A stretch of 52,790 bases of DNA from a virus (lineage: Duplodnaviria > Heunggongvirae > Uroviricota > Caudoviricetes). This document shows, piece after piece, positions 40,601 to 43,600 of this stretch. The stretch covers positions 1 to 52,790 of the IMG/VR virus record IMGVR_UViG_2534681742_000008; one strand, written 5' to 3'. Made by a program: the position numbers. Positions within the stretch are counted from its first letter, which is position 1; each line of letters opens with the position of its first letter.

Positions 40601-43600
40601 CAGATATGTCAAAGGCGCACAAACAAACCCAAACCTGCTCTCATATATCACGCAGACAAAGACAAGTGCAGCTGAGACAAGCCCCCACTGCAAGAATCCC
40701 CATCCAGCCCTAAATCCAGAGAAATACTGCCACGCAAAGGCTGTAACAACAGCGAAAACCAACCAGGTAAGCGATGATTTACTTACTTTGCTAAAATCAA
40801 CAAAATCTACCAACTTGGCAATCAATACCCCGGCAAGAAAATTTATAATGATAGGGTTTGTCACAAGGGACATATAGGCAACACTAAAACCATAATCAAC
40901 CTCTGTGACGAAGCTAAATGATGAAAAAATAGATGGTATTATGTAAAGAATAGTCATGAACGCTAAAGAGAAAACAGTCCACATCCATCTATTAAATGCA
41001 AGAGATACAGCAAATACAGCATAGAAGAACATCTCATAGTTCAATGTCCATCCAACAAAGAGAGACGATAACCCAAGATTCGGAGCGTTTCTGGCGTCAA
41101 GAGGATAAAACAGCAATGATTTTATTATGTCAGTATAATTATCGAATTCGTGAGCCGTGGGAACTGAATATTTAAGGACTATCAGCCATAGTATTGTCGC
41201 TATGAAATAAAGTGGATATACGCGTGAAAACCGCTTTATGATAAATAAGATTGACTCATGAACGCCTGTCCTATTGTGCGTATAGGTCATGACGAATCCA
41301 CTAATAATGAAAAATAAAGGCACGCCCATCCCACCATAAGAGAACAGTGCATCGCCAAAATTATAAAAAGGCATATTGAAATACACCTTAAAATGCACAA
41401 GAACAACCATTAAAGCGGCAATTCCTCTCAATGCCTGAATGGTATTAATTGTTCTCTTTGCGTCGTTAGAGTCATTGACCGACATCGCAACATCATCCCG
41501 TTTCGTATGCAATAAGTATTTTCTGCATTCTATCATGAGTTTTCGCGTTCTCTATGTTCAGTGACACATTTGTGATTGACGAGGCAAATCCGGATGAACT
41601 ACTGTATGCATGAACAGTATTTATCGGAGGTGCATTATGGGATTCCCGAGTCCAGCGCAAGATTTTGTTGAGCAACGAATTTCACTAGACCAGCGCATCA
41701 TAACCAGGTCAGCTGCTACGTATTTCATGCGAGCCGGGGCAACGCATTACAGGGAGGGCATCATCAGTGGTGCTCTGCTTGTTGTCGACGCATCGCTGAG
41801 GCCGTGTGACGGGTCATTGCTGGCTTGCAGAATGGAAGGTGATATGAGGATAAAGCGGTATCGTAATCATCCAAAGGCGCACCTGGAGGATTTGCAGACG
41901 GGAAGGCGTGAAGAGATACCTGTTCACGATGACGGCACAAGCCCGGATGCGATATTTGGGGTGATCACGTACACCATCAACGATGCTCGTTCTGGCGAGT
42001 TCGACGACTGCCCGGTGATGTGAGACAGAAATGGGACACACAAAGCTTTGCACTGGATTGCAAATATTTGTGCTCTTCTATGCTGAGTGGCTACATGTTT
42101 GAAGAGCGTTGTGCCGTATTTGTGACATACACATGACAACATCATGCATCAACTTTCTGTTTGTGCCATCAACTATTGCTTGGTGAATGCGGTTAATGCT
42201 TGCTAAAACAGATAGTTATGATTGGTGCTACAGATTCGTAATGCGAAGGTCGTAGGTTCGACTCCTATTATCGGCACCATCAAGAAAATCAATAACTTAG
42301 CTTAACTTCTCTAAGAAATTGTATCTTCTGTTATCACTTACAAACGCCTATACGTTGTTATGGGCTTTGGTAGTGTAACACGTATGGGCGAGTAGTTCCC
42401 AGGCTCAACCTCGTAACAAGTTCCTTTGAAGCTGGAAGACGTGCCACCGTCTCTAAACCTTCTACCAAAACTCTTAGCAAGATGTTCCACACCTGGCGCG
42501 GTGTCCAATGATGCTACACGTCGTGAGACGTTGCAGAGGATAAACAGGCTAAATGATGGGAAGAGTTTTAAGTGCAATAGTGGATCAAAGCCCACCTCTT
42601 CAAAACCTAACTTGATCGGGAAAGAATCAAGCTCTAGCACGGTTTCGTCCACCGGAGTACAACGGGTGCCTGATAAGAGAAGAACTGCTAAGACTTCATA
42701 GCTTTTGTGAAAAAGCCCTTTTTAGTGGATACGCCTACGGCGCTTATTTTTTGGTATAACCATCAAAGGCGCTTTATGGCTCCTATTGTCTTGAAAATGT
42801 ATCTTTACTTGTATTGTGTTTTATGCGTAGTCTCCCTGTGTAGTATGTAACTTGTTAATTTTCATATGAATACAGAGGCAACACGATGAAAAATATTGCA
42901 GCTATCAAACGTAATAACCGCAAGATTCACGCTCGTAAGTTCCTGTCTACGCCAGAAGGAAAAGCCTGGCTAGAGCGTAAACAGAGAGAGAACGAAGAAA
43001 GAAAACTCCTTAGTGAGTTGAAATGGCTTAAGGATTGAATCACCAGTAGGCGCATAACACATCCAGCGATCAAAGATGTGTTTATGCGCCTGATAGTGAA
43101 ATTATTAAAGTCGTTTAGTTAACATCGCCATTGCTTGAGCAATAATTGCAACAGCGTCCATCTCTTCACTGGAAGCGATGCAAATGCGGTAACTAATAGC
43201 CACAATGAATACATCAATAACGAGAAAGTGAATAGTGTGAAGATGTTTTGAAAGTAAATGCATAACTTCCTCCGGTTTTGGGATAGGAGGATTAGAACAT
43301 GCATTAAATGATGTTGCAAGAATGGCAATTTACCCTAATAGTCTACTATTCACCTCAATCTACGTCAACCAATATTTGATGTAGATTTAATTTTCTTTTA
43401 AAAACAATATGTTGTTATTTGTTGAATTTTGGGGTTAGGTTGTTTTTTGAACGTTTTCATCAAGTGTAAAGATACGTTTAGCCTTCATAGTGAGTTCAGT
43501 TACTGTCTTTTTCTCTGAAATCGGCGCAAACGTGATCATCGCTTGAGGTTGCTGCTCTTACTTCTCAAATTGTGATGGAGAACGATAAAGGTTAGAGGGC

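Follow-up and report, generated by a model that had tools for sequence, protein, structure and literature searches.

A humD-family gene beside attR of a thrW prophage: a probable SOS-induced, pre-activated UmuD' surrogate

What does a ready-made UmuD'-like protein do for a prophage that holds no partner polymerase gene beside it? The question is raised by a short gene at the right end of an Escherichia coli prophage, contained in a stretch of 52,790 nucleotides (nt) that spans positions 1 to 52,790 of the IMG/VR virus record IMGVR_UViG_2534681742_000008 and is called the window here. In the original prediction, made from the sequence alone, the gene was read as an SOS-controlled UmuD' mimic or decoy of a kind that was not recognised. 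We conclude that it very probably encodes a pre-activated surrogate of UmuD', induced by the SOS response and acting together with the host UmuC, and that it is humD-family cargo of a P22-like prophage in thrW. The gene and its control elements are as follows.

41637 to 42023, plus strand: humD-family gene, 128 codons and a TGA stop, encoding a UmuD'-like product without the N-terminal arm
41626 to 41630, plus strand: Shine-Dalgarno sequence GGAGG, 6 nt ahead of the ATG at 41637, as read from the sequence
41600 to 41619, no strand assigned: LexA (SOS) box TACTGTATGCATGAACAGTA, ending 17 nt ahead of the ATG at 41637

Against NF051876, the NCBIfam equivalog for the ‘HumD family translesion DNA polymerase’, the product scored 209.6 bits (E 1.1e-62; cutoff 120), and the match ran from end to end, with residues 1–128 lying on profile positions 1–129 of 129. 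A match to PHROG 811 (‘UmuD-like protein’) was also found (E 9.5e-45), and the identity was 79% to gp26 of phage N15 and 69% to HumD of phage P1. By these profile and identity measures the gene is an ordinary full-length member of the known HumD family, whose prototype is P1 HumD, and is not new. The idea that it was an unrecognised entity is overturned by this match, and by other P22-like phages in which humD, whole or as a remnant, is found from the tailspike gene to attP. The exact 128-residue sequence is already present from E. coli (for example EGB89161.1; draft records) under the HumD family name in both NCBI and UniRef; other NCBI records label it ‘S24 family peptidase’ or use the erroneous name ‘LexA family transcriptional regulator’. 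A megablast search of complete E. coli genomes with the locus found no humD allele at 85% DNA identity or above, the best reaching 84%. The ratio of nonsynonymous to synonymous substitution rates (dN/dS) against 10 homologues was 0.03–0.08, which denotes strong purifying selection and hence a working gene rather than a relic.

The likeness to P1 HumD (humD, P1_gp103) extends well beyond shared membership of NF051876. The 69% identity holds over the full length, the P1 protein starts MGFPSPA at the Gly25 equivalent, and P1 humD, like the gene here, has a LexA box 17–19 nt upstream, no cognate umuC, and a tail reading …ARSGEFDDCPV[MI]. The two differ in the loop at the nucleophile position, which is ADSH (with Ser) in P1 HumD and GATH (with Thr) here, and in their setting: P1 humD sits between lxr and phd-doc in a plasmid prophage, whereas the present copy sits between an acyltransferase gene and attR in an integrated one. 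N15 gp26 and phiKO2 Gp23 are UmuD homologues of linear plasmid prophages, and N15 gp26, the closest relative among named phages, shares both the GATH loop and the tail with the present product. N15 gene 26 lies behind a tail-fibre gene with a LexA box upstream; N15 is nevertheless another type of phage with other neighbours (the sopAB partition genes downstream).

Whether the product is truly pre-truncated depends on where translation begins. The mechanical list of open reading frames (ORFs) gave the same frame as 41610..42023 on the plus strand, with 137 residues. The start codon is likely the ATG at 41637, from which the 128-residue product begins MGFPSPAQDFVEQRI (MGFPSPAQDF), and more than 100 homologues start at exactly the same Met-Gly. 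The ATG at 41610 falls within the LexA palindrome (41600–41619) and has no Shine-Dalgarno sequence or ribosome-binding site; it is the sole alternative, and would add nine residues (MNSIYRRCI ahead of MGFP…) that contain no cleavage site. A 137-residue version is annotated in some public records of the same 90% cluster, the length obtained from the ATG at 41610, and its nine-residue extra N-terminus probably reflects a wrongly chosen start codon. The frame is closed by a stop 13 codons 5' of the ATG at 41637, making a 24-residue arm or a Cys/Ala-Gly cleavage site impossible, and an upstream in-frame extension of the ORF was ruled out on this ground. No scissile Ala-Gly or Cys-Gly bond follows an N-terminal segment; the protein simply opens with Met-Gly, and in the alignment with E. 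coli UmuD (PDB 8gmt_B, residues 25–136) the counterpart of its residue 2 is Gly25. The description of the ORF as pre-truncated and aligned with UmuD from Gly25 is borne out by this alignment together with the upstream stop.

The relation to UmuD' was evident in both sequence and model. The UmuD' structure 1umu was matched by sequence with E 7e-16 (pairwise HMMER), a profile of 45 family sequences reached E 4e-31 against UmuD' in the PDB, and Pfam Peptidase_S24 (PF00717) scored 25.1 bits against a cutoff of 23.3. We used an AlphaFold (AF2) model based on a diverse alignment of 71 sequences, with a mean predicted local distance difference test score (pLDDT) of 75.6; an earlier model from 24 close homologues (pLDDT 43.9) was too poor and was discarded. 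The best structural matches of the AF2 model were the UmuD' structures 1umu and 1ay9, with a target-normalised template modelling score of 0.77, followed by UmuD on the RecA filament and then by the C-terminal domains of LexA and lambda cI. The product is thus predicted to have the S24 C-terminal domain beta-fold of the UmuD'/LexA type. E. coli UmuD' (residues 25–139; 1umu, 1ay9), the accessory subunit of DNA polymerase V (pol V), has the same fold and the same post-cleavage N-terminus, and shares with the product the core GFPSPA…YVE…RI…ATYF… and the Lys97 equivalent. Their identity is only ~30–33%, however, and UmuD' differs in arising by RecA-dependent self-cleavage from a gene in an operon with umuC, neither of which applies here, and in having the Ser60 nucleophile, a loop one residue longer, and no acidic C-terminal tail. 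The label ‘LexA family transcriptional regulator’, attached to the exact protein in some NCBI records, was rejected, since the product has no N-terminal winged-helix DNA-binding domain. The LexA profile TIGR00498 aligned over positions 90–166 only, which is the C-terminal domain, at 21 bits against a cutoff of 111, and in the 128-residue product nothing lies N-terminal of the S24 core.

The next question is what remains of the S24 protease site, for which two sets of codons are needed.

41736 to 41750, plus strand: codons for G34-A35-T36-H37-Y38, a shortened loop in place of UmuD S57-G-D-S60-M61
41853 to 41855, plus strand: codon for K73, the equivalent of UmuD Lys97, the general base of the S24 dyad

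Because the nucleophile loop is one residue shorter than that of UmuD, the alignment register is ambiguous. Pairwise HMMER placed His37 on Ser60, both a four-sequence MAFFT alignment and the family profile placed Thr36 there, and L-INS-i on ~100 sequences placed a gap at Ser60 itself. Under all three registers the loop GATHY offers no Ser at the position of the UmuD Ser60 nucleophile, in keeping with the earlier observation that the catalytic Ser is missing; the pairing of GDSM with GATH on which that observation was based agrees with the family profile alignment, and Thr36 most probably occupies the nucleophile position. The Lys, in contrast, is kept as K73, its position being fixed by the K97A mutant chain 8gmt_B. 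Position 36 carries Thr in 100 of the 121 close relatives, Ser in 19 and Ala in the remaining two. With Ser present in P1 HumD and in those 19 relatives, its loss is not family-wide, and a hydroxyl residue is kept.

A broader comparison put this loop in context. We took representatives of 50%-identity clusters from 2250 matches at E up to 1e-3 and separated those that start with Met-Gly or Met-Ala (pre-truncated, n = 48) from those with an N-terminal arm (n = 39). The shortened loop was present in 38/48 pre-truncated representatives and the Ser and Lys dyad in 5/48. Among the arm-bearing representatives, 30/39 had the dyad and 32/39 had Ala or Cys ahead of the Gly. Neither dyad residue is conserved in the wider pre-truncated class, where Lys is often replaced by Arg. 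By these counts, decay of the Ser-Lys dyad accompanies pre-truncation across the homologues, as would be expected where self-cleavage is no longer needed.

Control by the SOS response was the other main element of the proposal. The full-arm pattern TACTG-N10-CAGTA occurs once in the 52.8 kb, against 0.02 occurrences expected (2/100 shuffles). For the looser pattern CTGT-N8-ACAG, 0.82 chance occurrences are expected in the window, which makes it insignificant by itself, and we therefore relied on the full-arm pattern and on conservation across loci. The box aligns with its counterparts 5' of P1 humD, of N15 gene 26 and of the remnant in phage BTP1, and the P1 record annotates a ‘LexA binding site in the regulatory region of lxr and humD’, 19 nt before humD. 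We drew on genomes and viral contigs for a set of 94 distinct homologous loci, and CTG-N10-CAG was found within 80 nt upstream in 64 of these, most commonly with a gap of 17 nt. The LexA box claimed at 17 nt upstream is therefore confirmed at the level of sequence, with perfect arms at 41600–41619 and conservation in 64/94 loci, and we infer that LexA binds it. A possible promoter overlaps the box.

41576 to 41605, plus strand: possible sigma-70 promoter, with TTGACG (41576–41581), an 18-nt spacer and TACTGT (41600–41605), identified by eye

The candidate -10 element TACTGT overlaps the left half of the LexA box. A consensus scan for promoters and terminators found no plus-strand promoter ahead of the humD gene and no terminator behind it; the candidate -10 agrees with TATAAT at only 3/6 positions and was missed by the scan for that reason. 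Elsewhere, a weak LexA-box-like sequence, TACTGTACAAATCAACAATC, was noted at 38143–38162 just 5' of the tailspike gene, with two arm mismatches and within chance expectation.

The gene is also an orphan in the window. A tblastn search of the window with a UmuC-like protein gave a best E of 0.1, and the neighbours of humD are the acyltransferase gene and attR, which upholds the claim that no umuC or other polymerase gene is adjacent. An adjacent umuC was likewise absent at 93/94 of the homologous loci. The single exception is a locus of Cedecea sp. S5-13 (NZ_JBHIKW010000004.1; L028:4001-5650), where the humD-like product begins MAFPSPA, carries Arg for Lys97 and ends in the tail …EFDDNPCM, and where a LexA box precedes the gene; behind the gene is an overlapping ORF of 431 residues whose N-terminus reads like UmuC. 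Judged by this gene order, the Cedecea locus would be a humD-umuC operon.

Taken together, these features suggest the following course of events. In the lysogen, LexA bound at 41600–41619 would keep humD off; on DNA damage, cleavage of LexA would allow transcription from the gene's own promoter, independently of the phage repressor. The product would be a UmuD' look-alike with no need of RecA-mediated self-cleavage, because translation starts at the position equivalent to Gly25. By homology with P1 HumD, it would dimerise and, with the host UmuC, form a translesion polymerase resembling pol V. The slow activation of UmuD to UmuD' would be skipped, and damaged host and prophage DNA could be replicated across lesions once the SOS response is on. 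Since SOS onset is the same moment as prophage induction, a benefit to the phage seems plausible. The Ser-Lys dyad, not being needed for self-cleavage, would be free to degenerate, as in the change of Ser to Thr and the loop shortened by one residue. The functional part of this account follows P1 HumD, of which the P1 GenBank record states ‘DNA repair; functionally complements E. coli UmuD'’. P1 HumD ‘facilitates SOS mutagenesis’ according to the title of McLenigan et al. (1999, J Bacteriol 181:7005), as given in papers citing it, and PMC7092418 describes a functional UmuD' substitute promoting SOS mutagenesis.

Several points weigh against this account. The function of the present allele would follow by homology only, at 69% identity to the sole characterised protein, and binding to UmuC or the RecA filament and substitution for UmuD', known only for P1 HumD, are extended to it by analogy. 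P1 HumD is also said to be poorly expressed and to require a high copy number for full complementation. The humD promoter in the window is weak by consensus and was not called in the scan. The remaining 30/94 loci (L007, L009, L010, L076-L125) have no LexA box in the sequence ahead of humD (60 nt up to the start); in these, humD lies directly behind another coding region and has its own Shine-Dalgarno sequence, an arrangement that suggests co-transcription with the upstream (possibly tail-fibre) gene and no SOS control. SOS control is thus common in the family and not universal. Finally, two conserved features hint at something beyond simple substitution for UmuD', namely the retention of Thr/Ser36, His37 (115/121 close relatives) and Lys73 (118/121) in the close clade, and a conserved C-terminal tail that has no counterpart in UmuD'.

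These same features are the basis for other readings of the gene. The loss of the catalytic Ser, the shortened loop, the extra tail and the identity of only ~30–33% to E. coli UmuD' would all suit a decoy or dominant-negative protein that binds UmuC, UmuD/UmuD' or the RecA filament unproductively and so, during SOS, damps host translesion synthesis or the UmuD2C checkpoint in place of supplying pol V activity. UmuD' acts with UmuC independently of its protease site, however, and the UmuD' core is under strong purifying selection. For P1 HumD, moreover, the annotation and the citations describe a protein that complements UmuD' and facilitates SOS mutagenesis. We found no positive support for an inhibitory role, which we consider improbable and less likely than that of a UmuD' surrogate; in the former wording ‘mimic or decoy’, the mimic is retained, as a surrogate in line with the annotation and citations of P1 HumD, and the inhibitory decoy is not. 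The constancy of Thr/Ser36 (119/121) and Lys73 among close relatives, and the Ser that P1 HumD carries at the equivalent of position 36, could instead point to a residual protease in which a Thr/Ser36-Lys73 dyad cleaves in trans, with host UmuD, LexA or the phage repressor as candidate substrates. UmuD' can indeed cleave UmuD intermolecularly, but we know of no S24 enzyme with a Thr nucleophile, and the scarcity of the Ser and Lys pair, the frequent change of Lys to Arg and the shortened loop across the wider pre-truncated class make such an activity very doubtful.

The gene might also be thought a non-functional, decaying remnant beside the attachment (att) site, given that many P22-like and Shiga toxin (Stx) phages hold only fragments (65–78% coverage) at the same position. 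The ORF here is unbroken and covers the whole length of the family profile, is accompanied by a Shine-Dalgarno sequence and a LexA box, and shows the low dN/dS reported above, which refutes decay for the copy in the window and leaves this reading with practically no probability. A last proposal concerns the tail and is compatible with the UmuD' surrogate as an addition to it.

41979 to 42020, plus strand: C-terminal tail NDARSGEFDDCPVM, residues 115–128, extending ~10–12 residues beyond the end of UmuD

All close relatives end in …NDARSGEFDDCPVM (…EFDDCPVM), and the tail recurs in pre-truncated representatives down to ~40% identity, as …EFDDTPF, …EFHDNLPF and …EFDEIPCI, while being almost absent from UmuD proteins with the N-terminal arm. 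The synonymous codons beneath the conserved tail residues vary freely, and the tail has low pLDDT in the AF2 model, as would a disordered linear motif. The tail motif of the HumD class would be …EFDDxPΦΦ-COOH, conserved, disordered and acidic. When anchored at the C-terminus, the humD tail resembles the acidic tip of E. coli SSB, which ends …MDFDDDIPF (sequence checked against PDB 1eqq_A), and according to PMC5872125 and PMC10018359 the SSB tip is a known docking hub motif for many genome-maintenance proteins. It is possible, although we propose it only tentatively, that the tail docks HumD-UmuC onto SSB-binding proteins or competes with SSB. The restriction of the conserved tail to pre-truncated homologues, the free synonymous variation, the low pLDDT and the known role of the SSB tip favour this; the likeness, however, spans just 4–5 residues of a short acidic motif, the end C-P-V-M differs from the I-P-F of SSB, and a role as a degradation tag, or in the dimer or UmuC interface, would account for the tail just as well. 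If docking of this kind is real, HumD-UmuC complexes made by the phage would gain a route of their own to gaps coated with SSB or to the partners that bind SSB. With similar reserve, the HumD class may be viewed as a distinct design with three linked changes: loss of the arm, decay of the dyad with a one-residue loop deletion, and an acidic tail that imitates the SSB tip. The literature searched, a search that did not take in the original HumD paper, makes no mention of a HumD-class tail or of SSB-tip mimicry, and a search for UmuD with prophage and tailspike returned nothing on the humD gene described here.

UmuD-family genes on mobile elements are not confined to phages. MucA, RumA, ImpA and SamA are full-length precursors with the N-terminal arm and the Ser-Lys dyad, each paired with a umuC homologue of its own. 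The same combination of arm and dyad is seen in the arm-bearing cluster representatives, none of which was identified as MucA, RumA, ImpA or SamA. As UmuD homologues of plasmids and integrative and conjugative elements (ICEs), these four resemble the present gene in being UmuD-family genes on mobile elements under SOS control, a context discussed in PMC11541004.

Work on P1 had described this type of gene by 1999, including LexA control, pre-truncation and orphan status, and the exact protein already receives its name from annotation pipelines, so the gene carries little weight as a discovery. Its practical value lies in correct annotation, as against the LexA and S24 labels and the false nine-residue extension. 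P22-like prophages repeatedly carry an intact humD as cargo at their att-proximal end, where it could raise SOS mutagenesis in lysogens, and the tail motif together with the correlated decay of the dyad provides modest new leads on the regulation of pol V.

The setting of the gene is defined by the following features of the prophage.

1369 to 1444, no strand assigned: complete tRNA-Thr(CGT) gene (thrW)
42234 to 42283, plus strand: attR core, a 50-nt repeat of the thrW 3' end, 49/50 identical to 1399–1448
38236 to 40326, plus strand: P22-type tailspike gene (Pfam Head_binding PF09008, E 1.9e-64), the last virion gene, at which the cargo region begins
40367 to 41536, minus strand: acyltransferase gene (Acyl_transf_3, PF01757, E 1.7e-29), divergent from humD and outside the humD unit

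The att core at 1399–1448 comprises the last 46 bases of the tRNA (1399–1444) and the next four. Over the left flank (proA-thrW) the identity to E. coli genomes is 100%, and in the empty site of E. coli CRE1540 (NZ_CP019051.1) window position 1448 is joined straight to 42284. The contiguity of the left flank with the right flank (42284–52790) in this strain identifies 1449–42283 as an inserted element of 40.8 kb. A tyrosine integrase gene adjoins attL, and the virion genes are ~95% identical to those of phiv205-1 and of the P22-like phages CUS-3, HK620 and Sf101-type; by these comparisons, the element is a P22-like prophage in thrW of E. coli.

Within this prophage, humD is the final gene ahead of attR and fills the slot for cargo that runs from the tailspike gene to attP, consistent with the right-arm position first assigned to it. 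Escherichia phage Huey has a ‘UmuD-like protein’, 64% identical, in the same slot, which in such phages is bounded by tailspike or O-antigen-modification genes on one side and by attP/int on the other. The copies in BTP1, ST-35, Sf101, mEp234 and several Stx phages are truncated remnants in this slot (65–78% coverage) and mostly unannotated, in contrast with the intact copy here. Many homologues on viral contigs stop exactly at the contig edge, and others are followed by host genes whose N-termini resemble LepA or transporters of the major facilitator superfamily (assigned by eye rather than by a family-library scan); both arrangements are consistent with an att-proximal position.

The acyltransferase gene is probably lysogenic conversion cargo of the O-antigen acetylase type, as are gtrC of BTP1 and oac of Sf6. 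A promoter-like site on the minus strand (41554–41527) lies inside its annotated 5' end, and the true start of this gene may accordingly be the second Met. To the right of attR, 42284–52790 lies outside the core genome and forms an island of ~14–15 hypothetical genes. The island is complete in only 89/5426 complete E. coli genomes and adjoins thrW in prophage-free strains, and it looks like a second, older thrW-associated island.

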